Shown piece after piece: positions 8,774 to 22,256 of a stretch of 64,000 bases of DNA; within the stretch, counting starts at the first letter, position 1, and each line of letters starts with the position of its first letter. A program made the translations under genes and the position numbers. Origin of the DNA: Verrucomicrobiota bacterium (GTDB taxonomy: Bacteria; Verrucomicrobiota; Verrucomicrobiia; Palsa-1439); the NCBI GenBank assembly GCA_037127585.1, contig JBAXYB010000001.1:9147-73146 (forward strand), read 5' to 3'. The notes below the pieces were generated by a model that was not told the DNA's origin, made no database searches, and saw only the letters and a list, made by a program, of their open reading frames with translations.

Positions 8774-11700
8774 ATGCATAGCGGCAGCAATCTAAAGAAA
8801 GAAGGGATGATCACGATGTCACCAAACGCTTGTTTTGTCTTGCGGATGCCACTGGCTAGAGCGTGGCGCTGGCTGTTGATGCTGGGGATCGCGCTGGTTG
8901 TCGCGAAGACTCCGGTCTGGGGCGGCGGCGGGCCGTGCGGGTATCTGGTGGTGTACGACCCGACGGACACCAACTCGATAGCGGTGGCGAATTACTACCA
9001 GCAGGTGCGCCACGTTCCCGAAGCCAACATGGTCCCGTACGTTTTTCCGAATACCGGTTTTTCTGATCGCCGAATCATGTCCACTGATGGGAGTTGGGCG
9101 TTCATCAGTACGTTAACGTCCATCGTCAATCAACGAGGAATGACCGGCCATTTCAATGGCATTGCCATGGCCGGAATATCGCCTGTGTGTGCGGGTGTAT
9201 CAATGCACTCGATCCTGTTTGCATCGCCGAACTACGCCAGCACAAATTATCTTTCTTTGCCCGGTTTCTATAATGGGGCGTTTCGGCCCAACGGCGCCAC
9301 CACCGAACTGCGCTCGGACTTGGTGCTGACGAATACGCGTTCGCCCTACTGGAGCAGTGGCTCGTATTCCGGTCAATACTGGGCCGTCTCATATGTCGGG
9401 TACACCGGCGCCGGCGGCAATTCGCCGCAGGATGTGTTCAATCTGTTGCAGCGGTCGAAGGCGGCGGATGGACATGGTCAAGGCGGGACAATCTATTGCC
9501 CGTACAGCGGCGATTCCGTGCGCTATCGGATCCGGGGCGGGACGTGGAGTGGCGTTGGGTCCGTGGTGGGCGAGATTGCCAAGGATGCCATTCCAGTCTG
9601 GAATTCGAATGGGATTGCGTATGTGCAATCGGCTCAACCCGACGCTTTTTGGATACAAAATGGCAGTATGACCAATGTCAGCGACAATGCCGGTGAGATT
9701 GTCGGGTACTCGCAAGTCGAATGGGGAAACAATAACAACACGTATTTACCCGGTGCCTTTGCCGATCATGCGACCAGCTATGCCGGCCAGATTGATTGGT
9801 GGCAAACGGGTAATCAAGGCACTTGCGCGCAGGAGATCCATAAAGGCCTCTATGGGAGCGCGGGCACGATTAATGAGCCGTATGCTCTGGCGGCGAAATT
9901 CCCCCATCCGAATCTTCACACGCATTTCCGCAACGGCGCGTCGCTGGCCGAGGCCGCTTGGGAGTCCATCCAGTATGCTGCGGAGATTGTTTTTGTGGGC
10001 GATCCCTTGCTGCAGCCGTATGCCACCTTCCCAACGGTCGCGGTGACCAGTCCGGCCGCCGATGGCACAACGGTGTCGAGCAATTTGGTCATCTCCGCCA
10101 ACGCCACCGTCGGTGCCGTCACCAGCCCCACCACCATGATACCGACCGGTGTGGAGTCCAATCTGGACGTGGCCGTGGACGGTCATGTCGTCAACATCGG
10201 CCAGGGGGGCGAGACCATTGCGGTAACCCGCACCAATGGGGGGACGGGATTCATCCTGGACACCACGACGCTCGCCGACGGCTGGCATGAGTTGCGCGTC
10301 ATTGCTTACAACCGCAACGCGGTGCGCACCCAGGGCGAAGCGACCCGCACCATTTTCGTCAATAACCATGGCCAAAGCGTGGCACTGAGCGGGCCGGCCA
10401 GCGTGGATTACGCCGGCGGTACCGCCGGCTTCACCGCCACACCGGCGGGGCCCGGCACCGTGACCAACTTGACGCTGCAAGTCAATGGCCGGACCTTGGC
10501 GAGCCTGCCGGTTAGCGGCGGCACAACCAATCTACCGGCGGCCATGTTTGGGTATCAAGGCACGACAACCGTGTATGCCGTTTCCTGGTTGAACAACGGC
10601 CAACAGGTTTGGAGCGCGCCCTGGAGTCTCAACGTGGCTTGGACGCCGAATGCACCGGCCAGCGTGACCCTGACCTCCAATCGAACCGCGACCGTGAAAT
10701 ACTTTGCCAATACGCAAACGAATACTTTTTCCTGGGCGAACCCGCCGACGGCGACGACAACCCTGACTAACAATCTGATCTTTAACACCAACAATCTGGC
10801 GGCGGTGCTTCCGACGGACTACTCGACACTGCCGGGCTATCAAGTGGACACGTATTACTGGGCGGCCACGACGAACCTGTACGAATTTGCCCTCGGTGAT
10901 GCGAATAATGCCTATACGCACACTTTGGGCAATATCACGATGTTGGTGGATGGACAACCTGTGGGCATCATCGCGGGAACGACGGTGCCCGTCCGGCTGG
11001 CCACCGGTGCGCATACGCTGACGATGCGGTTTGCGGTGCTGACGAATTCGTTCTTCGGGCGGGTTTATGTGCGGGATATCGCTGAACAGCAGGTGGGCGG
11101 GAGCACCGTCTCCCAACTGTATGCCATCGTACCGCAAACCTGTCTCTTTACGGCCACCAATGCCACACCGCCGGCGATCACGGCGGGAACGGCCAGCCGG
11201 TTGAGCACCAACCAGGTCAGTCTTTCCGTGACGGCCACCACCGGGAACCCGGGGCCGCTGACGTACACCTGGACGAAAGCCGACGGACCGGTTGAGGGTG
11301 TTGTCGCGTTTGCACAAAACGGCACCGCCGCTGCCTTCACCAACACGGCAACGTTCGGGATGGCGGGCACCTACTTGTTACAAGTCGCCGTGAATGACGG
11401 CACGGCTGTGACGTTCGACCAGTTTTCAGTGAAAGTGACGACCAATCAACCGCCTTCCATCAGCAGCGCCTTAAGCGCGACCGGCTTGGTGAATCTGGCT
11501 TTCAGCTACACGATCACGGCCAGTAACAGCCCCACCCGCTTCGATGCTGTCGGACTGCCGTCGGGCTTGAGTGTCAACACCAACAACGGCGTCATCGCCG
11601 GTATTCCTGTTGCCGCCGGGACGAACAATGTCACCATCAGCGCCACCAGTGATGACGGCACGGACAGCAAGACCTTGGTGCTAATCATCAATCCGGCCGT

Positions 11701-14700
11701 GACGATCAGCACCACCAGTCCACTGTCAACTGGCACCGTGGCCTATGCCTACAGCCAGACCTTGGCGGCGACCGGCGGGGTCACGCCGTACACGTGGGGC
11801 ATCGTCTCCGGGAGTTTGCCGGCGGGCTTGGGATTTGTCACCGCGACCGGCGCCATCACCGGCACGCCGACCACGGTTGGGACCGCCAACTTCAATGTGA
11901 GGGTCGCGGACAGTGTTGGCGGTTCCGCGACGAACGCGTTTAGTTTGACCGTCGTGCCGACCCCGCCGCCGAGTATCACTACGACGAGTCCGCTGCCGAA
12001 TGGCACGGTCGGCTGGGCCTACAACCAGACCTTGGTGGTGGCCGGCGGCATCGCGCCGTACACATGGGGCATCATCTCCGGGAGTTTGCCGGCGGGTTTG
12101 GGATTGGTCACCGCGACCGGCGCCATCACCGGCACGCCGACCACGGTTGGGACCGCCAACTTCAATGTGAGGGTCGCGGACAGTGTTGGCGGTTCTGCGA
12201 CGAACGCGTTTAGTTTGACCGTCGTGCCAACCCCACCCCTGATGATCACCACCACCAGTCCGCTGCCCGACGGTGCTCCGAATGCGTCCTACAATCTGAC
12301 CTTGGCGGCGACCGGCGGGATCACGCCGTACACGTGGGGGATTGCCTCCGGGAGTTTGCCGGCCGGTTTAGGGTTGGTGCCCGGTACCGGCGCCATCACC
12401 GGCACGCCGACCACGGTTGGTAGCACCGCCTTCAATATCATGGTGACGGACAATGTGGGGACCGTCGCGACGAACGCGTTCAACCTGACGATCAATCTGC
12501 TGGAGTTCTACTGGACCAATACCCAGGCTCGCGCGGATTTCACCAACCAATTCAACGTCTGGCAGCCGGCCTTGCCTGGCCCGTCCGACGAAGTCAACTT
12601 CACGAACAACCTGACCTATACGGCAAATTTCACCAATAACGTCCAGGTCCAGAACTTGAGTGCCTACTTCAATGCGACCAGCGGCACGGTGACGCAACAG
12701 TTCGCGAGCGGCGCCGTCTGGACAGTGGCTCACAGTTACGTGCTGAGCCAGAACCCCGGTGCGGCGGCGACAGTCGTACTCGCTGGTGCGGGCACCGTCG
12801 CGGTGACCAACGGCGGTACCGCGCAACTGCTCGTCGGCCAGAGCGGGCGGGGCACGCTGACGTTGAACGGGGGCAACCTGATTGTGGACCAGTTGTTCAT
12901 GACCAACAACACGACCACGACGACCAACTCATTCCTCACCAGCACTAGCAGCGCCAACGTCACCATCAATAACGGCTCGACGTTCTACGTGAATAGCAAC
13001 ACGAAACTGAATATCAACGGCACGTGGCTGATGGCCGGGGGCCAGAATACCGTCAGCAACATGGTCACAGGGGCGACTCCATTCTATATTGGCGGCACGC
13101 TGGCGGTCACCGGTGCGAACACGGTGCTGAGCTACATCGGGCCTTTGGACAATTCGTCTACTCCCGGGGCTGGCGTCGGCGGGTTATTGGTGGTGAGTAA
13201 CCAGGCGCGGGCGTTCTTCACCGGGGGCGGGGGGAATTTCGCCATTGCGCCAAACGCGACGGTCACGGTGAATAATGCCTCCATGACGTTTTCCAATGAG
13301 ATCGTGAAGGTCGGATTCAACACTGGCAATGGGTTACCCGACTCTCGAGGCACCCTCATCGTCACCAATCAGGGGTATTTGATTGCGGTGAGTGGGATCG
13401 ACCTCGGGGGCAACAACAACGCTACTGTCAGCGGCAATCTGCTGCTTATCGCCGGCGGCGGGGTGGTTAGCAATTATGGCGCCCTCCGTGTCGCCGGACA
13501 AAACGCCAACCTCGAGGGGCTTAACTATGGTAACCACGTGGACATTACTTCGGGCGGCCAGATGATCAACACCAACACGGGCAACACCATTGGATACGTG
13601 AACTTCAGCACCGCAACCATCAGATCGAACAACTACCTGTGGGTGTCGGGGCAGACCTCGACAGGTTTATTCTACCGGGACCTGACCGTTGGAAGTGATG
13701 GCTACAATTTCGGCCAAAAAGGCACATCGATAGGGAACTACCTACAGCTGGACAACGGCGGCACCCTGATCGCCAGCAATCTGAGCGTGTCGGCGGGGCT
13801 AATCACCTCGAACAATTACATCCTCGTCAACGGCGGCAACCTGTACGTAACCAACGCGCTGGGCAACGGCCGTCTGATGATCGGAGACCCCGGCAATGGC
13901 TCGACCGTGGACGGCGCCGGTACGGGCTGGCTGGTGATCAGCAATGGCGGGTTGGTGACGGTGGACAAACTGATTGTGACCAACACTCTCAGCACGGTCA
14001 CCTTCACCGGCGGCACGCTGGCGCTGAACAAATCCATCTACCTCGGCAACGCGATCACGGCCGGGGGCACGGTCAAGGGCAACGGCTACATCACCGGGAT
14101 CACGAACATCACCGGCGCGCTCAGCCCCGGCTTCTCGGTCGGCGCGCTGACGTTCAGCAACGACCTGACCTTCGGCAGTAGCGCCGTAGCGCGCTACGAC
14201 CTCGGCACCAACCAAGATCTGACTGTCGTGACCGGCACCTTGAACCTTGGCGGCACGCTCGTCGTGACCGATGCCGGTGGTCTCACCACGGGCACCTACA
14301 CATTGGTCAGCTACGGCGCGCTCGGCAGCCTGACCATGACCAATGACAACCCGTTGCCCGGCGGTTTGAGCGGCGTGATTTCCAACGATGCCGCGAACAA
14401 CCGCGTCGTGCTCGTGGTGACCAGTGGGGCACCGCCTCCGCCAGCGGCCAACTTCACAGCGGCGCCGCTCAGCGGTGTTGAGCCGCTGACGGTGGTCTTT
14501 ACCGATGTATCGACCGGCGGGACGCCTACGAGTTGGGTGTGGGATTTTGGGAATGGCACGGCCAGTGCCTCGCATCCGACCAATACCTATTGGGCGGGCA
14601 CATATCCAGTCAGTTTGACGGTGAGCAACGCGGGTGGCAGCAGCACGACCAACAAACTCAACTACATTACCGTGATCACCGCGGCGCAATCCTGGCAGAA

Positions 14701-15091
14701 TTATTATGGCGTGGCACCGGACTCAGCCGATCCGTTGGGCAAGGGCATCAGCAACACCAATCAGTTCCTGGCCGGTTTTGATCCGACCCACCCGGCGGCC
14801 TATCCCCACATCATCAGCCTCGCTGTTGTGGCCGGTACCAACATGGACATCACCTATCTCGGCGCTAACGGCGACACGAGCTATGTCGGCGGCCCGATTT
14901 CACGCACCAACGTGCTGGAGATCAGCGTCGGTGGGGCGAATGGCAGTTACACAAACGCCTTCGTCAGTGCCGGAGTGACGAATATCCTGACTGGCGGGAC
15001 CGGTTTGGGTGTCATCACGAACATGCTGGATGTCGGCGGGGCGACGAATAAACCGTCCCGGTTCTATCGCGTCCGCGTGGTGACGCCCTAA
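8774..15091 (+). CDS. Giant secreted surface protein: TIGR03790-like N-terminal domain, Ig-like and He_PIG repeats, beta-helix region, PKD domain and a C-terminal RFYR tail
   Basis: GGGP..YLVVYD...VANYYQQVRHVP, GTINEPYA..KFP and GDPLLQPYA (TIGR03790-like); ATGGxTPYTW..SGSLPAGL repeats; PTSWVWDFGNG (PKD); ends SRFYRVRVVTP. The true start may be 8807 or 8816. Confidence 0.8.
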   Translation: MHSGSNLKKEGMITMSPNACFVLRMPLARAWRWLLMLGIALVVAKTPVWGGGGPCGYLVVYDPTDTNSIAVANYYQQVRHVPEANMVPYVFPNTGFSDRRIMSTDGSWAFISTLTSIVNQRGMTGHFNGIAMAGISPVCAGVSMHSILFASPNYASTNYLSLPGFYNGAFRPNGATTELRSDLVLTNTRSPYWSSGSYSGQYWAVSYVGYTGAGGNSPQDVFNLLQRSKAADGHGQGGTIYCPYSGDSVRYRIRGGTWSGVGSVVGEIAKDAIPVWNSNGIAYVQSAQPDAFWIQNGSMTNVSDNAGEIVGYSQVEWGNNNNTYLPGAFADHATSYAGQIDWWQTGNQGTCAQEIHKGLYGSAGTINEPYALAAKFPHPNLHTHFRNGASLAEAAWESIQYAAEIVFVGDPLLQPYATFPTVAVTSPAADGTTVSSNLVISANATVGAVTSPTTMIPTGVESNLDVAVDGHVVNIGQGGETIAVTRTNGGTGFILDTTTLADGWHELRVIAYNRNAVRTQGEATRTIFVNNHGQSVALSGPASVDYAGGTAGFTATPAGPGTVTNLTLQVNGRTLASLPVSGGTTNLPAAMFGYQGTTTVYAVSWLNNGQQVWSAPWSLNVAWTPNAPASVTLTSNRTATVKYFANTQTNTFSWANPPTATTTLTNNLIFNTNNLAAVLPTDYSTLPGYQVDTYYWAATTNLYEFALGDANNAYTHTLGNITMLVDGQPVGIIAGTTVPVRLATGAHTLTMRFAVLTNSFFGRVYVRDIAEQQVGGSTVSQLYAIVPQTCLFTATNATPPAITAGTASRLSTNQVSLSVTATTGNPGPLTYTWTKADGPVEGVVAFAQNGTAAAFTNTATFGMAGTYLLQVAVNDGTAVTFDQFSVKVTTNQPPSISSALSATGLVNLAFSYTITASNSPTRFDAVGLPSGLSVNTNNGVIAGIPVAAGTNNVTISATSDDGTDSKTLVLIINPAVTISTTSPLSTGTVAYAYSQTLAATGGVTPYTWGIVSGSLPAGLGFVTATGAITGTPTTVGTANFNVRVADSVGGSATNAFSLTVVPTPPPSITTTSPLPNGTVGWAYNQTLVVAGGIAPYTWGIISGSLPAGLGLVTATGAITGTPTTVGTANFNVRVADSVGGSATNAFSLTVVPTPPLMITTTSPLPDGAPNASYNLTLAATGGITPYTWGIASGSLPAGLGLVPGTGAITGTPTTVGSTAFNIMVTDNVGTVATNAFNLTINLLEFYWTNTQARADFTNQFNVWQPALPGPSDEVNFTNNLTYTANFTNNVQVQNLSAYFNATSGTVTQQFASGAVWTVAHSYVLSQNPGAAATVVLAGAGTVAVTNGGTAQLLVGQSGRGTLTLNGGNLIVDQLFMTNNTTTTTNSFLTSTSSANVTINNGSTFYVNSNTKLNINGTWLMAGGQNTVSNMVTGATPFYIGGTLAVTGANTVLSYIGPLDNSSTPGAGVGGLLVVSNQARAFFTGGGGNFAIAPNATVTVNNASMTFSNEIVKVGFNTGNGLPDSRGTLIVTNQGYLIAVSGIDLGGNNNATVSGNLLLIAGGGVVSNYGALRVAGQNANLEGLNYGNHVDITSGGQMINTNTGNTIGYVNFSTATIRSNNYLWVSGQTSTGLFYRDLTVGSDGYNFGQKGTSIGNYLQLDNGGTLIASNLSVSAGLITSNNYILVNGGNLYVTNALGNGRLMIGDPGNGSTVDGAGTGWLVISNGGLVTVDKLIVTNTLSTVTFTGGTLALNKSIYLGNAITAGGTVKGNGYITGITNITGALSPGFSVGALTFSNDLTFGSSAVARYDLGTNQDLTVVTGTLNLGGTLVVTDAGGLTTGTYTLVSYGALGSLTMTNDNPLPGGLSGVISNDAANNRVVLVVTSGAPPPPAANFTAAPLSGVEPLTVVFTDVSTGGTPTSWVWDFGNGTASASHPTNTYWAGTYPVSLTVSNAGGSSTTNKLNYITVITAAQSWQNYYGVAPDSADPLGKGISNTNQFLAGFDPTHPAAYPHIISLAVVAGTNMDITYLGANGDTSYVGGPISRTNVLEISVGGANGSYTNAFVSAGVTNILTGGTGLGVITNMLDVGGATNKPSRFYRVRVVTP
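11699..12500 (+). repeat. Three tandem 270-bp copies encoding He_PIG/Ig-like domains
   Basis: Equivalent sequence at 11761, 12031 and 12301; copies 1 and 2 are nearly identical over much of their length. Confidence 0.9.
12834..13858 (+). repeat. ~1 kb beta-helix cassette, copy A (copy B at 19708-20753)
   Basis: Direct comparison shows long identical tracts (e.g. ~13434-13586 = ~20338-20490) separated by short divergent patches. Confidence 0.92.
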
Positions 15092-15167
15092 TCATGGGAG
15101 AAATTCTCGACGCGCTAGCGAAGGCGGACCCCAAGATGCCGGTGATCCTCTGCCACATCACGCCGCG

Positions 15168-15446
15168 GTCAATGTTTTCGGCACGCTGAACGTTGACGGG
15201 GCAACCTTGGCGTTCAACGATCTCTCCGGCGGCAACCTCACGAACAGTGTGTATGTCTCCGGCCAGTATGCCGGGACCTTGGGCGGGCAGTTCGCAGTGA
15301 CGAACGGCCTCCCTGCCAACTACGCGTTCAACAGTGTCTACAACGACAACGAACTGGCGCTGGAACTGATTCCAGAACCTTCGGCGTTGGTGTTGGCCGC
15401 GGTCGGACTGTTCGGTGTGGCACTGCTGCGGCGTCGCCGACGGTAA
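15168..15446 (+). pseudogene. Orphan C-terminal fragment carrying a PEP-CTERM sorting signal
   Basis: ...ELIPEPSALVLAAVGLFGVALLRRRRR*; no signal peptide or convincing start; out of frame with the upstream giant gene. Confidence 0.75.
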
Positions 15447-15597
15447 GCGCGCGGTGAGAGATTGGCCGCGCACCCTCGGCCTTCACCAGTCGTGTCCGGT
15501 CGGAAACAGGGGTGTAAAGACTCGGGAGCCCCCCACAACTTTGCTTCATTAAACATTTGCTTGATTGATATCACTGAGTTAAAACACTGGTGACTTT

Positions 15598-16657
15598 ATG
15601 GCCACCCTGAAGGACATTGCGGGGGAGTTGAACGTTTCCACCGCCTTGGTTTCGAAGGTGCTCAATGACCGGATGGGCAATACCGGTGTCAGCGACCGGA
15701 CGCGCCGGGCGATCATGGCCAAGGCCCAGGAACTGGATTACCGGCCGCACCCCTTGGCCGTGGCTTTGAAGGCCGGCAAACGCGGCGCCATCGGCGTGTT
15801 CCTGCACCCCTTTGGCGAGCCCGGCGCCGGCCTGACGGAAGCGCTGTTGGCGGGGATCGCCGACAGGCTCAATCAGCACGATCAGCGGATGTGGCTGACC
15901 TTCTATCAAACCGACCGCCAGTTTCTCCACTTCTGCTCGCACACCGTGGGGCACTATGTCGATGGCTTGCTCGTGGCGGGCCCTGTCGCACCACACCCTT
16001 GCCGACCCGATTCGCCGCATCCAGAAGAGCGAGGTGCCGGTCGTCTCGGTCGTTTCCGGTCTGCTCAGCCAGCACATTCCAAACGTTTTCAGCGATGATC
16101 GACAGCAGACGTACCTGTCAACCAGTCACCTGATCGCCTGCGGTTGCCGGCGCATTGCCCATATCCTTCCCACCCAGAACGAGTACGTGGCGGATCAGCG
16201 CTTTGAGGGGTACCGTCTTGCCCTGCGCGAGCACGGGCTGAAGTTCGATCAGGCTCTGGTGCATCAGACGAGTGGATTTCACCGTCAAAGCGGCCTGGAC
16301 GCGGTGTGTAGCTGGATCCAACAAGGAGTCATGTTCGATGGTGTGGTGGCGCAGTCGGACCATCAGGCACTGGGCGTCCTCCAGGAATTGTTGCACCGCG
16401 ACATCAAAGTCCCGGACGCCGTGCGCGTGATCGGCGTGGACGATTCGCCGTTGTGCGATGCCAGTCCGGTGCCGCTGAGTTCGGTGTCCCAGGAAATGAC
16501 GGAGGTGGGCCGGCGAGCCGTGGATTTGTTGATGAAACAGATCGCCGGCGAGCCGGTCAAATCAGTTGTGGTGCCCCCGCGGTTGCATATTCGCACCTCC
16601 ACGGGAGCCGAGCAGCCGGTTAGACAACTCAGCACGGCTGTCGTGGCGGCTCAGTGA
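15598..16657 (+). pseudogene. LacI-family transcriptional regulator, frameshifted
   Basis: HTH ATLKDIAGELNVSTALVSKVLN; the C-terminal domain (RFEGYRLAL, VPDAVRVIGVDD, PLSSVSQ) is in another frame; one extra C at ~15981-15983. Confidence 0.85.
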
Positions 16658-16817
16658 GCCGCACGCTGCTTTTCATGCTCCGCCATACCATTCCGTTGTG
16701 CGGTACCCACCTCCCGCTTTCAGTCGTAGCTGCAAGTGATAATCCAACAGAGCGTTAAAGTTGGTCGTAAGAAATCTTGGACGCCTCGTTTATTTTCCCA
16801 TTTTTTATCTTTTCTTG

Positions 16818-16866
16818 TTGACGCGAGTCGGTCCAAGTCGTATTTTACTATTGTTCAAACGTTTGA
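16818..16866 (+). promoter_or_regulatory. Putative sigma70 promoter with a downstream LacI-type operator
   Basis: TTGACG (16818), 17 bp spacer, TATTTT (16841), then TCAAACGTTTGA (16855-16866), identical to the core at 7168. Confidence 0.6.
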
Positions 16867-16985
16867 TACTCCGAATTGATCGGAGATCGTGGTGAGGTTG
16901 AACAGCCTGAAGCAAAAGGAACATGGCGAGTGCGAAGCAAGACGATGTATCGCGCGAGAAAGATTCTAACTGGAGAGGTTCTATC

Positions 16986-19900
16986 ATGAACATGGCAATG
17001 CCGTTTTCTCGAGTTTTGAAACTCCTGACAGGGTTCAACGTTCTGGCCGCGCTCCTCCTCGCGCCGCCGGCGAATGTCTTCGCCGCCGACTCCATTTGGA
17101 CCAACACGACAGCCGGCGGCAACTTTGGCGACACGACCGCGATTTGGAGCAACGGCGTCCCGGGCGTCAATGACAACGCCATCTTCACCAACAATTTCGC
17201 CTACTCGGTCACCAACGTCGCCGGCGCAAGTTTCCTCAACGCCAACGCTTCCTTCAACGGCACCAGCGGCATCGTGACCGGCAAGTTCGGCACGGGAACA
17301 TGGACGCTGACCAATAGTTTCATCGTCGGCCAAAACGCGGGCAACACTGCCACGGTCGTCTGGGTCAACGGCACGTTGGCGGTGACCAATGGCGGTACCG
17401 CACAACTGATCGTCGGCGGAATTGGAAGCACCGGCTCCTCGTTTAATCTCTACGGCGGCACCGCCATCGTCAATAAGGTCACGATCAACAGCGGCGCCAC
17501 GCTCAACTTCAACGGCGGCACGCTCGGCGTCGGGGCCGGCGGCACCACCGTTTCCGGGACGGGCGCTGTCAGGATCGCCGCCAGTCAGACCGCGTTTGTG
17601 GACACGATGGGCAACAACGCCACCATCAACAGCGTCATCCAAGGCAGCAACGGCGGCCTGACCAAGTCCGGTACCGGCATGCTCGTGCTCGGGACCAACA
17701 ACACTTTCACCGGCAACCTCACCGTCAATGCCGGCACGGTCATGGTCATGGCCACCAACACGCCGTTGGCGAACCAGACTGTGAACCTCACCGGTGGTAG
17801 CAAATTCACATTCGGCCAAGTGACCACGAATTTTACGACGAGCTTTACATCAAGCACGACGTGGGTAGATCCGGCGGGTGTCAGCAGCGCGAATCTATTG
17901 GTGGTCGGTGGTGGTGGCGGCGGTGGTGGGAATCGCGGTGGCGGTGGTGGCGGTGGTGGCGTCACCAACCTCACCGTATCGTTAACCCCCGGCAACACCT
18001 ACACCATTACCGTTGGCACGGGTGGCGGAGGGGGCAGTGCTAACGTGGCGGGAACAAAAGGTGGAAACTCGGCTTTCTCCAATGCCGTATTGACAGCACT
18101 GGGCGGTGGTGGCGGTGGCAGTTTCGGTGCCGCTGCGACCTCTGGCGGTTCGGGTGGCGGTGGCGATAACAATTCGGCTCACTTTGCCGGCGGCACTGGA
18201 ACCCCAGGACAGGGGAATGCCGGCGGGACTGGGGTTGCTAATGATTCTGCCGGCGGCGGCGGCGCCGGTGGGGTGGGGTCGAATGGACAAACCGGTGTTA
18301 AAGGTGGGAATGGCGGCATCGGATTGTATTTTGCGGCTTTTTCAAGTTATGGCGCCTCGGGCTATTTCGGCGGTGGTGGTGGTGGCGGCTCCGGCAGTAG
18401 CGGGAATGGCGGCGGCGGCGTCGCCGGAACCGGCGGGTTGGGCGGTGGCGCCAATGGAACCACCGGGGATAACAACGCAGCCCCGACCGCGGCTCAGGCG
18501 AATACCGGCGGTGGCGGCGGCGGAGAAACAGGGGGTGGCAGCGGAACTGGCAGCGCCGGTGGGTCCGGCATCGTCCTCGTGCAGTGGGTGGGGCAGACGA
18601 CTGCGAACTATCTACTCACCAACGTCAATTTCTCGCTCCTGACCGGGGCGATCTTGGATTTCAGCGGGAACAACGTCAGCATCGCCTCGCTGGCGGGCGG
18701 CGACGCGAGTGGCATCGTCACCAACAGCTCCAGCACGCTGGCTTCGATCTTCACCATCACCAACGCGACGGGCAGCGCCACCTATGACGGCCAGATCACG
18801 GGCGGTGGGGCGATCAGCCTCGTCAAGGCCGGCGGCGGCACTGAGATTCTGACCGGCTCCAACACCTTCTCTGGCACCGTGACCGTCAACGGCGGGACGT
18901 TGATGCTGGGCAGTCTCTACTCCCTCGGCGTCAGCAACTCCGTCACCGTCAGCACCGGCGGCAGCATCGTTGCCACCAACGCCGGCACCTCCTACATTGT
19001 CGGCAACGGCGGGAGCAACGTGACGGTGCTGATCAGCGGCAGCGGCTCGCTCTGGACCAATGCCGGCGCCTTTGTAATCGGCAGTGGCGCGGCGACCGGC
19101 AACGTCGTCACCGTCAACGCCGGCACGCTGGCGGCGGGGGCCTTGATGATCGGCACCAACGGTGCGATGCGCAACAGCCTGCTGATCACCAACGGCGGCC
19201 AAGTCGTCGGCACGGTGGCCAGCACGCTCGGGTTTACGGCCAACAGCAACACGATCACGGTCGCCGGCAACGGGGCCCTCTGGAATTCCAGCGCGGCCGG
19301 GATCACGGTGGGCACCGGCGGTTCGACCGGCAACGTGCTAAACGTCAACAGCGGCGGCAGCGTCATCGCCAATGGCCTGACCATCAATGCCGGCGCCACC
19401 GATTGGAGCAATTTTGTCAATGTCGCCGCGGGCAGCCTGTTTGTTACTAACGCTGCCGGGTCGGCCTCGTTGATCGTCGGTGGGAACGGACTGGTGTTGG
19501 CCAACAACGGTCTGGTGGTGGTCTCGAGCAATCTGGTGATCGGCGCCACTGGACTCGGCACCTTTACCACCAGCGGCGGATCGATCGCGGGCGTGGCCGG
19601 CCAGAACCTGAGCGTGATTCTCGGCCAGACCACCACCGGCACCGGGGTGTTCACCGTCGCCAGCGGCAGCACCTACATCACCAACGGCGGCAACGCCAAG
19701 TTGATCATCGGCCAGAGCGGGCGGGGCACGCTGACGTTGAACGGCGGCAACCTGATTGTGGACCAGTTGTTCATGACCAACAACACGGCCACGACGACCA
19801 ACTCATTCCTCACCAGCACTAGCAGCGCCAACGTCACCATCCAGAACGGCTCGAGGTTCAACGTGAATCTGGCGCAACTGGCGATCAATGGCACGTGGCT

Positions 19901-22256
19901 GATGGCCGGGGGCCAGAATACCGTCAGCAACATGGTCGCAGGGGCACAGAACCAGGGCACTGCATTCTACATTGGCGTTGGCGGCACGCTGGCGGTCACC
20001 GGTGCGAACACGGTGCTGAGCTACATCGGGCTTTTGGACAATCAGCCTTATCCCGGGGCTGGCGTCGCCGGGTTATTGGTGGTGAGTAACCAGGCGCGGG
20101 CGTTCTTCACCGGGGGGGGCGGGGCGAATGCTGTTTTCGCCATTGGGCCAAACGCGACGGTCACGGTGAATAATGCCTCCATGACGTTTTCCAATGAGAT
20201 CGTGGGGGTCGGACACGTTGCCAATTCCTCTGGTTCGACACCCGACTCTCGTGGCACCCTCATCGTCACCAATCAGGGGTATTTGACTGCGGTGAGTGGG
20301 ATCGACCTCGGGGGCAACAGCGGCGGTACTATCATCAGCAATCTGCTGCTTATCGCCGGCGGCGGGGTGGTTAGCAATTATGGCGCCCTCCGTGTCGCCG
20401 GACAAAACGCCAACCTCGAGGGGCTTAACTATGGTAACCACGTGGACATTACTTCGGGCGGCCAGATGATCAACACCAACACGGGCAACAACATTGGATT
20501 TGCGAGCTTTTCCGCCGCAACCATCAGATCGAACAACTACCTGTGGGTGTCGGGGCAGACCTCGACGGGGACGTTCTACCGCGACCTGACCGTAGGATTC
20601 GGCAACGGCTCCCAAGGCACGTCGGTGAACAACTATGTGCAGTTGGACACCGGTGGCACGCTGCTGGCCAGCAACCTGACCGTGTCGTCGGGGGCTGGCG
20701 CCAGCAACAATTACATCCTGGTCAACGGCGGCAACCTCTACGTGACCAACGCGGCGGCGGACGGTGGCGTCCTGGTGGTCGGTCAATCCGGCCAAGCTTC
20801 GCTGACGATTACCAATGGCGGCATGGTCAAAGTCGGCAGCCTGATTGTGACCAACTACGGCACCTACGTCAACACGGTCGCGTTCAACGGCGGCACCCTG
20901 AGCGCGAAGAACATCACCAACAACAATGGCTCGGCGTTCAAGATTGGCAATGGCATCTCAGCGGCGACGCTCAGTGAGCTTGGGGGTCAGAGCTATTTTG
21001 CCAATGGGATCAGCGTTGCCAACAACGGCACCATCACGGGCGGCGGCACCAATTGGCTGGGCAGCACGCTGCAGAACTCCGGGTATATTATTGCCAGTAG
21101 TCCGACCGCGGAACTGGCGTTCACCAACACGGTGGCCGGCATGGCCTTCGGCAATGGCGGCACGCTGATCGCCCAAGCGGGTGCGACGTTGAGTTTCCTC
21201 GGCTCACCCGGCAGCAGCGCGTTGACCAACTACGGCACGATCAACCTGCTCGGCGGCACCGTGCGCGGCACCACGATCACCAATCTGGCGAGCAGCGGCT
21301 GGATTACCGGTTACGGCACCATCAACAACTCCACCGTTTACAACCAGGGCACAATCCTGTTCAACTCCACCACGCCGTTGGTTTTCGGCGGTGGCCAACT
21401 CGTCAACGCCCCCGGCGGCGTGGTGACGGCCAACGTCGGCCGCATTAGCGTCAGCGGCATCTTCACCAATGCCGGCAAGTTCGTGGCGCTCAACAGCGTC
21501 GGCACATTTAACAGTACCGTGGTCAACAGCGGCACGTGGATCACTGATCCGACGACGCTGGTCTTCAACGGGACATTCAGCAATGGGCCAAACGCCTTGA
21601 TTCAAATGGCGCTGGGCGACGTGTACATTTTCAAGAGCAACTTCCTGAACCAAAGTGTGTCGTCGTTGAATTCGACGACGTACGTTGGTCGTTTTGTATT
21701 TGCGGGTGACTCGAACGTGGTGGGCAAACAGACCATGCAAGTGGCCGGGTTGGCGCTGGGCGGGTATGGCAGCACTTTGAACGTCGTGACCCAGAATGAG
21801 TTCTTCACGCACACGGATCTTTCCACCACCCAGACCGGCAACTTTTCGACCAATCGGTTCGACTACGTCCCAACGGATTCGATTACCGGATTCACAAACA
21901 ACTGGGCCTTGAGTGGGTTGGAAGTTGGCAGTCTGTCGATCACGTCGGAACTCTGGTTGGCCGACAGTTTTGCTAGTGGGACGCATACCGCTGGATTGTA
22001 TGTGTCGGAGTTGACGATCAATCCCGGGTCACGGTTGGTGATCAGCAACAACGTGCACTTGTACTTTGGGCGGACGAATTCGGTGTACGGGCTGGCGTTC
22101 GGCAGTTGGGGTGACAATCCCACCGCCAATATCTTGTTGTTGAACGGAGCTGGCTATCATCTGTTAGTGATCCCCGAGCCCGGTGTGGTCATGCTGTGGC
22201 TGGCCGGGGCGGCCACCCTCTGGTCCGCGCGCCGGCGACGCTCCAAAATTTCCTAA
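16986..22256 (+). CDS. Large PEP-CTERM surface protein with autotransporter-associated beta-strand repeats, a glycine-rich domain and a beta-helix
   Basis: Signal peptide (...NVFA/ADS); GLTKSGTGMLVLGTNNTFTG and LVKAGGGTEILTGSNTFSG repeats; Gly-rich block; ends IPEPGVVMLWLAGAATLWSARRRRSKIS. The ORF is open from 16923. Confidence 0.88.
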   Translation: MNMAMPFSRVLKLLTGFNVLAALLLAPPANVFAADSIWTNTTAGGNFGDTTAIWSNGVPGVNDNAIFTNNFAYSVTNVAGASFLNANASFNGTSGIVTGKFGTGTWTLTNSFIVGQNAGNTATVVWVNGTLAVTNGGTAQLIVGGIGSTGSSFNLYGGTAIVNKVTINSGATLNFNGGTLGVGAGGTTVSGTGAVRIAASQTAFVDTMGNNATINSVIQGSNGGLTKSGTGMLVLGTNNTFTGNLTVNAGTVMVMATNTPLANQTVNLTGGSKFTFGQVTTNFTTSFTSSTTWVDPAGVSSANLLVVGGGGGGGGNRGGGGGGGGVTNLTVSLTPGNTYTITVGTGGGGGSANVAGTKGGNSAFSNAVLTALGGGGGGSFGAAATSGGSGGGGDNNSAHFAGGTGTPGQGNAGGTGVANDSAGGGGAGGVGSNGQTGVKGGNGGIGLYFAAFSSYGASGYFGGGGGGGSGSSGNGGGGVAGTGGLGGGANGTTGDNNAAPTAAQANTGGGGGGETGGGSGTGSAGGSGIVLVQWVGQTTANYLLTNVNFSLLTGAILDFSGNNVSIASLAGGDASGIVTNSSSTLASIFTITNATGSATYDGQITGGGAISLVKAGGGTEILTGSNTFSGTVTVNGGTLMLGSLYSLGVSNSVTVSTGGSIVATNAGTSYIVGNGGSNVTVLISGSGSLWTNAGAFVIGSGAATGNVVTVNAGTLAAGALMIGTNGAMRNSLLITNGGQVVGTVASTLGFTANSNTITVAGNGALWNSSAAGITVGTGGSTGNVLNVNSGGSVIANGLTINAGATDWSNFVNVAAGSLFVTNAAGSASLIVGGNGLVLANNGLVVVSSNLVIGATGLGTFTTSGGSIAGVAGQNLSVILGQTTTGTGVFTVASGSTYITNGGNAKLIIGQSGRGTLTLNGGNLIVDQLFMTNNTATTTNSFLTSTSSANVTIQNGSRFNVNLAQLAINGTWLMAGGQNTVSNMVAGAQNQGTAFYIGVGGTLAVTGANTVLSYIGLLDNQPYPGAGVAGLLVVSNQARAFFTGGGGANAVFAIGPNATVTVNNASMTFSNEIVGVGHVANSSGSTPDSRGTLIVTNQGYLTAVSGIDLGGNSGGTIISNLLLIAGGGVVSNYGALRVAGQNANLEGLNYGNHVDITSGGQMINTNTGNNIGFASFSAATIRSNNYLWVSGQTSTGTFYRDLTVGFGNGSQGTSVNNYVQLDTGGTLLASNLTVSSGAGASNNYILVNGGNLYVTNAAADGGVLVVGQSGQASLTITNGGMVKVGSLIVTNYGTYVNTVAFNGGTLSAKNITNNNGSAFKIGNGISAATLSELGGQSYFANGISVANNGTITGGGTNWLGSTLQNSGYIIASSPTAELAFTNTVAGMAFGNGGTLIAQAGATLSFLGSPGSSALTNYGTINLLGGTVRGTTITNLASSGWITGYGTINNSTVYNQGTILFNSTTPLVFGGGQLVNAPGGVVTANVGRISVSGIFTNAGKFVALNSVGTFNSTVVNSGTWITDPTTLVFNGTFSNGPNALIQMALGDVYIFKSNFLNQSVSSLNSTTYVGRFVFAGDSNVVGKQTMQVAGLALGGYGSTLNVVTQNEFFTHTDLSTTQTGNFSTNRFDYVPTDSITGFTNNWALSGLEVGSLSITSELWLADSFASGTHTAGLYVSELTINPGSRLVISNNVHLYFGRTNSVYGLAFGSWGDNPTANILLLNGAGYHLLVIPEPGVVMLWLAGAATLWSARRRRSKIS
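19708..20753 (+). repeat. ~1 kb beta-helix cassette, copy B (copy A at 12834-13858)
   Basis: Near-identical DNA to copy A, with loop substitutions and in-frame indels. Confidence 0.92.

Follow-up and report, generated by a model that had tools for sequence, protein, structure and literature searches.

How can two different, predicted surface proteins of one bacterium share a segment that is nearly identical even at silent sites and yet differ within it, at regular intervals, by short blocks of changed residues and changed length? This question is raised by a stretch of 64,000 nt (here called the window) on contig JBAXYB010000001.1 (positions 9,147 to 73,146, forward strand) of Verrucomicrobiota assembly GCA_037127585.1, a metagenome-derived draft of 276 contigs (3.39 Mb, 94.9% complete). 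The segment, which we call the cassette, lies in two large genes, A and B, both on the plus strand of this contig; a third paralog, gene C, lies on a separate contig. We found eight divergent patches within an otherwise almost identical cassette framework, mapped them to loops of a predicted beta-helix and observed mosaic ancestry among the three genes. The best explanation, which we consider somewhat probable, is concerted evolution by interlocus gene conversion with the loops left apart.

An almost identical framework interrupted by eight patches

A repeat search recovered six co-linear, two-copy direct-repeat blocks of 189, 73, 146, 79, 300 and 151 nt (77-96% identity), and the distance between copies drifted from 6871 to 6904 nt in multiples of three because of in-frame indels. 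In a protein-guided codon alignment of the cassette core (Table 1), 234 of the 305 columns held identical codons, 15 differed silently, 41 encoded different residues and 15 were gapped. Variable codons no more than 4 codons apart were grouped, and groups with at least three variable codons were defined as patches. This procedure yielded eight patches, which comprise 66 aligned codons (81 if gapped codons are included), and a framework of 224 codons. Only 15 of 672 nt differ in the framework, with synonymous divergence (dS) of 0.060 and nonsynonymous divergence (dN) of 0.010, whereas 68 of 198 nt differ in the patches (dS 0.28, dN 0.52). Six in-frame indels, all multiples of three, were located within five patches, and the framework had none. 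The longest identical nucleotide runs were 153 (13434-13586), 58, 53, 52 and 52 nt.

An earlier reading of the window, made from the sequence alone (the sequence-only reading), had described shared tracts with divergent patches and listed eight pairs of peptides, all of which were recovered by the codon alignment. It had placed the patches roughly every 20-30 codons. Their spacing is indeed regular, but neighbouring centres are separated by 27.5-35.5 codons, except for a single interval of 58 where a loop stayed invariant. Variable codons are clustered far more than expected by chance: 35 close pairs were counted, more than in any of 20,000 permutations (mean 18.4, maximum 30).

The left edge of the cassette, at 12834, is sharp in the codon alignment. 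On the right, identity at synonymous sites, which the sequence-only reading had extended further, holds to about position 13690. The flank at 13718-13870 is homologous but not homogenised; its A-B identity of about 77%, with dS 0.50 and dN 0.23, reflects older divergence.

Where the patches differ, AT is found more often in copy A than in copy B (39 vs 18 directional differences, p=0.0075). GC content is 0.47 in the patches of A, 0.55 in those of B, 0.61 in the framework and 0.60 in the unconverted flank. GC-biased conversion was considered as a cause of the GC-poorer patches and is unsupported, since GC content of the unconverted flank is also 0.60. The GC-poorer patches may reflect residue composition of the loops, and AT enrichment in the patches of copy A could have the same cause or stem from mutations that arose there more recently.

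Patches lie on the loops of a predicted beta-helix

AlphaFold2 models were obtained for residues 1318-1760 of A (11-sequence alignment; pLDDT 85.1, pTM 0.90) and for the equivalent region of B (pLDDT 83.1, pTM 0.90). Both predict a right-handed beta-helix resembling an autotransporter passenger, with about one long non-strand loop per coil of ~30 residues. The cassette matched no family in Pfam or NCBIfam. A Foldseek search against PDB gave no match at E<=0.001 (best E 7.5e-3), and the top matches of an exhaustive structural search with VIA-align were autotransporter-passenger beta-helices: Vag8 (7akv_G, Z 24.8, rmsd 3.1, 346 aligned), TibA (Z 21.9), UpaB (Z 20.6), HMW1 (Z 19.9) and pertactin (2iou_H, Z 19.2).

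The patches follow the loops of these models. Of the 52 variable positions in the A model, 35 fall outside strands (odds ratio 2.8, p=0.0012), and variable sites occur in seven of the nine long loops of the core. In the B model, a long loop coincides at least in part with seven of the eight patches, patch 8 being the exception. Two long loops were spared: a poly-Thr loop is nearly invariant and the loop AGQNANLEG is invariant. In addition, the patches coincide with indel-prone columns in a family alignment of 10 sequences, consisting of A, B, C and seven remote homologs that were picked for matches spanning the cassette, partial hits being excluded. The variable segments thus map to exposed loops of the predicted structures, and the proposal of a beta-helix with patches in its loops agrees with both models. 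The presence of one long loop per coil suggests that these loops are stacked as a single ridge or edge.

Three paralogs with mosaic ancestry

A genome-wide search for further copies found gene C, so that three cassette-bearing genes are present in the genome. A and B are intact open reading frames (ORFs); C is open to the end of its 10-kb contig. Similarity among the three genes changes along their length on a fine scale. In windows of the module that lies N-terminal to the cassette (N-module), B and C are 92-100% identical at the nucleotide level, and A is 43-63% identical to either. In the first ~130 nt of the cassette, all three are 87-98% identical. In the rest of the cassette, A and B are 82-100% identical in most windows (69% across patch 5), and C is only 25-55% identical to either. 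In the right flank the three are roughly equidistant (62-85%). Further downstream, B and C share an 8-codon deletion, and this B=C block is immediately followed by a block of ~50 nt in which A matches C, including silent sites (A-C identity 0.91 vs A-B 0.76).

Ancestry is therefore conflicting along the genes. The 754 informative sites fall into 202 runs, compared with 443 expected (minimum 398 in 5000 shuffles), and the tail alone has 116 runs vs 156 expected (p<0.0002). This three-paralog mosaic implies recurrent segmental gene conversion, with some tracts as short as ~50 nt, and supports the segmental conversion that had been suggested from the sequence.

Close relatives of the family are rare. 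The 40 related genomes that were searched gave no match at E<=1e-10. A search of 5.8 billion proteins gave four hits at E<=1e-5 among 8000 candidates scored, namely the genome's own B and C and two remote proteins. A metagenome protein scan returned 82 pattern matches, none of which was confirmed, and an exact 33-nt framework pattern had no match in a metagenome scan. The beta-helix family itself is small: a search of 1.84 billion representative proteins gave 21 relatives at E<=0.001.

Silent sites and selection

Are the patches young and adaptive, or old? Among codons that encode the same residue in both copies, silent differences were found in 6 of 29 in the patches, 9 of 220 in the framework (Fisher p=0.0035) and 20 of 61 in the unconverted flank. 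The proportion of differing silent sites (pS) is 0.237 in patches vs 0.057 in the framework (p=0.001), and does not differ between patches and flank (p=0.24). Likewise, dN of the patches is close to that of loops in the unconverted flank (0.47). Silent divergence is thus raised in the patches, which gives them the appearance of old islands left out of homogenisation and speaks against recent adaptive point mutations.

The sequence-only reading had also suggested diversifying selection, and this was not demonstrated. The ratio of dN to dS (omega) is 1.58 in structure-defined long loops and 0.62 elsewhere; with only two sequences, the excess above 1 in the loops is not significant (Fisher p=0.26), and in loops of the unconverted flank omega is 0.6.

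These data bear on a different history, in which the whole cassette was transferred or duplicated once and recently, anchored in conserved flanks, and the loops then diversified in place under strong positive selection. The sharp left boundary and the single contiguous tract of ~880 nt would be expected from such an event, as would the high omega of the long loops. AT enrichment in the patches of copy A is what fresh mutations would give, and clean four-fold degenerate sites in core loops have diverged at just 3 of 29. However, patches that arose after homogenisation would require omega of ~9 (0.52 over the framework dS of 0.06), together with six indels in 81 codons vs none in 224, and neither test places omega significantly above 1 (p=0.26 and p=0.08). 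The five-fold enrichment of silent differences in patches is not produced by selection on residues alone, and the flank loops evolve at omega 0.6. We regard a single recent copy as unlikely.

Proposed gene conversion with the loops left apart

The islands reading fits the silent-site data, the indel content, the short tracts and a published signature of divergence peaks. In part of a review (PMC3924837), narrow peaks of divergence between duplicates that undergo gene conversion are said to mark sites of maintained difference, and the same source warns that gene conversion can mimic positive selection.

In the scheme that we favour, A, B and C would be paralogous surface proteins built around one unnamed right-handed beta-helix module, and would keep swapping short stretches by homologous recombination (interlocus gene conversion). 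Conversion would hold the strand-forming framework of the A/B cassette nearly identical at the nucleotide level, while the long loop of each coil would have diverged in sequence and length. The loops could remain unhomogenised in two ways. If A and B need different loop surfaces, conversions that overwrite loops would be selected against. Alternatively, heterology and indels would stop strand exchange, such that tracts start and end in identical segments. Either process may act singly, or both together. The outcome would be eight narrow divergence peaks, and the same beta-helix would present two different loop ridges. If the loops bind ligands, as we infer, the two ridges are most plausibly two binding specificities.

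Several observations weigh against this scheme. The A/B comparison consists of two close copies, and both ongoing conversion and selection on loops are argued from that pair; relatives were absent from the 40 related genomes and from two metagenome scans. About nine framework segments (32-153 nt) would have to be homogenised separately, which calls for many events or discontinuous tracts. Divergence at clean four-fold sites in core loops (3/29) is not clearly higher than in the rest of the core (7/116), and it is lower than in the flank (13/37). Framework differences are not crowded at patch edges (median distance 22 vs 23.5, p=0.46; mean p=0.17). The AT-richer patches of copy A hint at recent AT-biased mutation, which the scheme does not predict. 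Finally, assignment of patches to A or B rests on the original assembly. In run X1, a public freshwater metagenome that holds 0.90 of sampled words and was examined as Logan contigs (k=31), contigs are interrupted within the cassette, and patch 3 was represented in its B-type version alone. In three other runs (X2-X4), which hold 0.05-0.06 of sampled words each, depth is zero over bins 12951-13584, leaving the cassette uncovered.

Other sources of the patches

The loops might have been overwritten by very short recombination patches derived from unassembled paralogs, pseudogene cassettes or DNA of other strains, a loop-cassette shuffling that had also been raised in the sequence-only reading. 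The patches do change as blocks, in which codons differ at more than one nucleotide, indels occur and silent divergence is raised; tracts of ~50 nt exist in the family; and repeats may be missing from a 276-contig draft that is 94.9% complete. Among the variants listed for X1, A>G at 20151, which changes Asn to Asp directly downstream of patch 4 in B, has depth 10.5 of 16.4; it might represent variation within the sample or an additional copy. Donors were not found, however. None of 16 patch queries had a second copy at >=70% length in the assembly, where only chance-level hits to the 15- and 18-nt patches were obtained; just three cassette-bearing genes were found; and the 5.8-billion-protein search and the metagenome scans gave no closer relatives. 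Shuffling of this kind is, in our opinion, improbable.

A bolder idea is that the cassette is a programmable display scaffold whose framework segments serve as recombination handles for swapping single loops among expressed paralogs and perhaps unassembled donors or strains. We consider this quite doubtful. If true, stacked loop ridges would vary combinatorially, providing a non-retroelement system of the 'minicassette' type in free-living Verrucomicrobiota, and the drivers would be phages, grazers or changing polysaccharide targets.

Could the pattern be an error of assembly? A short-read assembler may have merged or cross-phased the two repeats, so that framework identity or patch assignment would be unreal. 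The genome is a draft derived from a metagenome, the longest identical run (153 nt) is near read length, X1 contigs break at the cassette edges with only one version at patch 3, and a likely 1-nt error was detected in a lacI-like gene of the same window. On the other hand, both copies lie on one contig in different, intact, long reading frames, and each of the six indels preserves the frame. The framework retains 15 isolated differences, which shows that assembly did not level every single-base difference. On either side of the cassette, contigs specific to A, B or C have plausible depths of 12-23, and the summed depth rises over the tracts that are shared. Breakage of X1 contigs at the cassette is as expected for k=31, and these contigs drop minority paths, which bears on the missing A-type patch 3. 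Mis-phasing would in any case swap patches between genes and not erase the pattern. An artefact is thus very unlikely.

Least likely of all, and in our view scarcely credible, is rewriting of the loops by a dedicated targeted mutagenesis system, whether of the diversity-generating retroelement (DGR) type or another. It would account for variation that is confined to predicted exposed positions of a surface protein and affects silent sites too. Against this, the reverse transcriptase family RVT_1 (PF00078) had no match in the 94.9%-complete genome, in a search whose control was positive in 3 of 14 genomes, and no template repeat was present in the assembly. The 83 substitutions are of all 12 types; copy A has adenine at 31 of these sites and copy B at 14. 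Moreover, indels are present, and eight separate targets occur where one variable region would be expected. The lack of an RVT_1 match, the absence of adenine specificity and the indels uphold the view, already taken from the sequence, that this is not a classical DGR.

Genes that carry the cassette

Coordinates of the genes, the cassette and its patches are given in Table 1.

Table 1. Features of cassette genes A and B, in window positions (loop numbers are residues of the AlphaFold2 models)
Feature	Position	Position in B	Strand	Remarks
Gene A	8774..15091		+	ORF and translation; 2105 aa; N-terminal TIGR03790-like region, He_PIG Ig-like domains, predicted beta-helix module with cassette, PKD domain
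Gene B		16923..22256	+	ORF and translation; 1777 aa; signal-peptide-like start, N-module, Gly-rich/PATR insertion, cassette, predicted beta-helix tail, PEP-CTERM end
N-module of B	A counterpart ~12479-12833	17070..17417	+	~50 codons fully identical to C
B-specific stretch		17385..19679	+	2295 nt, absent in C; Gly-rich domain and PATR repeat; TNGGxAxLxxG-coding segments on both sides alike
Cassette core in A	12834..13717		+	Near-identical framework with eight divergent patches
Cassette core in B		19708..20612	+	Direct repeats and codon alignment
Three-way conserved segment (GQSGRG...ANVTI)	12834..12967		+	Conserved among A, B and C; also best conserved part in remote homologs
Patch 1	12968..13012	19842-19883	+	3-nt indel; different in all three paralogs; overlaps long loop, model residues 90-94
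Patch 2	13067..13090	19938-19979	+	12-nt and 6-nt indels; loop 113-119 (A), 111-122 (B)
Patch 3	13142..13162	20031-20051	+	No indel; loop 142-148 (A), 144-153 (B)
Patch 4	13235..13249	20124-20147	+	9-nt indel; short turn in A model, 7-residue loop 172-178 in B model
Patch 5	13307..13336	20205-20240	+	6-nt indel; loop 197-209 (A), 205-219 (B); pLDDT <50 at B residues 210-213
Patch 6	13415..13435	20319-20339	+	Loop 228-234 (A), 238-244 (B)
Patch 7	13586..13612	20490-20516	+	Loop 292-298 (A), 303-307 (B)
Patch 8	13691..13717	20595-20612	+	9-nt indel; right end of homogenised tract; loop 325-333 (A), no long loop overlapped in B
Right flank	13718..13870	20613-20765	+	Homologous, not homogenised
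A=C block	13928..13984		+	~50 nt; directly after B=C block
PEP-CTERM sorting signal of B		22170..22241	+	TIGR02595 (NCBIfam), 17.5 bits, cut-off 16

The two proteins differ in architecture. In gene A, Pfam matches were obtained for He_PIG (5.1e-33) and PKD_4 (1.9e-08), and the N-terminus scored 56.7 bits against TIGR03790, under the cut-off of 67. In gene B, matches were found for Gly_rich_2 (Pfam, 1.5e-17) and PATR (34.3 bits, cut-off 27). The C-terminus of B is above the cut-off for the NCBIfam PEP-CTERM model and, with a score of 17.1, under the cut-off of 20.7 for Pfam PF07589. Three exosortase genes (PF09721) were above the cut-off in this 3.4-Mb genome, on contigs C32, C9 and C17, which suggests several PEP-CTERM sorting systems. 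Judging from its C-terminal domain and these exosortases, B is probably a PEP-CTERM/exosortase substrate. No autotransporter beta-barrel (PF03797) was detected by profile search in A or B, or anywhere in the genome.

The stretch of B that is absent in C carries a long poly-glycine/Gly_rich_2 domain (B residues 309-555). A joint of the C type (17384->19680) was seen in an X1 contig, in agreement with the translation and alignment of gene C. Similar short coding segments flank the stretch, which therefore looks like an insertion in B or a recombinational deletion in C.

Some further observations concern the surroundings of the cassette. Upstream of gene C, on its contig (C106), a gene on the minus strand (L003, 1-741) carries a prepilin-type N-terminal methylation motif (GFTLIELLVV...); genes with this motif are common in the Planctomycetes-Verrucomicrobia group. 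Within gene A, three tandem 270-nt repeats (11705-12514, plus strand) encode He_PIG Ig-like domains, the second and third copies being 89% and 72% identical to the first. An X1 contig joint inside these repeats steps back 268 nt (12267->12000, depth 11.8), which points to a variable number of repeats, or a different arrangement of them, within the sample. Between A and B, a LacI-family regulator (15598-16657, plus strand) is split into overlapping frames for the HTH (15598-16098) and the ligand-binding domain (15956-16657). The sole X1 contig over this gene has one base fewer at 15981 (depth 19.2 of 19.2), which would restore a single frame for the two domains; the split therefore probably stems from a strain variant or an error of the assembly.

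Comparison with known systems

Surface proteins that combine a framework with hypervariable loops have mostly been studied in pathogens under antibody pressure, and the present case comes from an uncultured freshwater member of Verrucomicrobiota. Here the coil period of the beta-helix scaffold sets the spacing of the divergence peaks. If selection holds the loops apart, the eight loops mark a functional (binding) ridge in an unannotated domain family. The case also carries a caution for genome scans, in that patches of this type can reach dN/dS above 1 as a side effect of gene conversion, so that such a value is not in itself proof of adaptation.

Silent-cassette systems (Borrelia vlsE, Neisseria pilE/pilS and Mycoplasma MgPa) show the same alternation of variable and invariant segments as the A/B cassette. 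In vlsE, according to part of a published account, six exposed variable regions alternate with six invariant ones, and conversion affects segments, at times discontinuously (PMC4534519). Such systems maintain an expression site with an archive of promoterless donors. In contrast, cassette and patch searches of the 3.39-Mb, 94.9%-complete assembly found no such archive.

DGRs likewise produce localised hypervariation in a surface or binding protein. They differ from the cassette in having a reverse transcriptase, a template repeat, adenine specificity and a different fold, and the cassette has indels. Autotransporter passengers (pertactin, Vag8, TibA, UpaB and Ag43) resemble the cassette in their right-handed beta-helix, as predicted by the models and by the VIA-align matches to Vag8, TibA, UpaB and pertactin. 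The variable regions of pertactin sit in loops. Unlike autotransporters, the present genes have no C-terminal barrel, and B ends in a PEP-CTERM signal.

Duplicates such as the human red and green opsins, RHCE/RHD and certain gene pairs of yeast and Drosophila, as described in part of the review mentioned above (PMC3924837), combine low overall divergence with narrow peaks at functionally different sites. These are eukaryotic and have one or few peaks, whereas the cassette has eight, whose regular spacing follows the coil period of the solenoid.

In Neisseria Opa, Wolbachia Wsp and Treponema Tpr, as in the present family, several full-length genes alternate conserved structural segments with exposed hypervariable ones. 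In such paralog families each variable region has its own recombination history, as stated in parts of two published sources (PMC4534519, PMC3656149). However, Opa, Wsp and Tpr form beta-barrels in the outer membrane of host-associated bacteria that face immune pressure, whereas the present family has a predicted beta-helix, carried by two giant proteins of unlike architecture in a free-living freshwater bacterium, with three copies known. In its working principle the cassette resembles these paralog families. Judged from the draft genome, it is probably neither a silent-cassette system nor a DGR, and it is no autotransporter. It is best read as a tidy new case of a known phenomenon, concerted evolution with loop-localised divergence peaks, on an unannotated and rare beta-helix domain.

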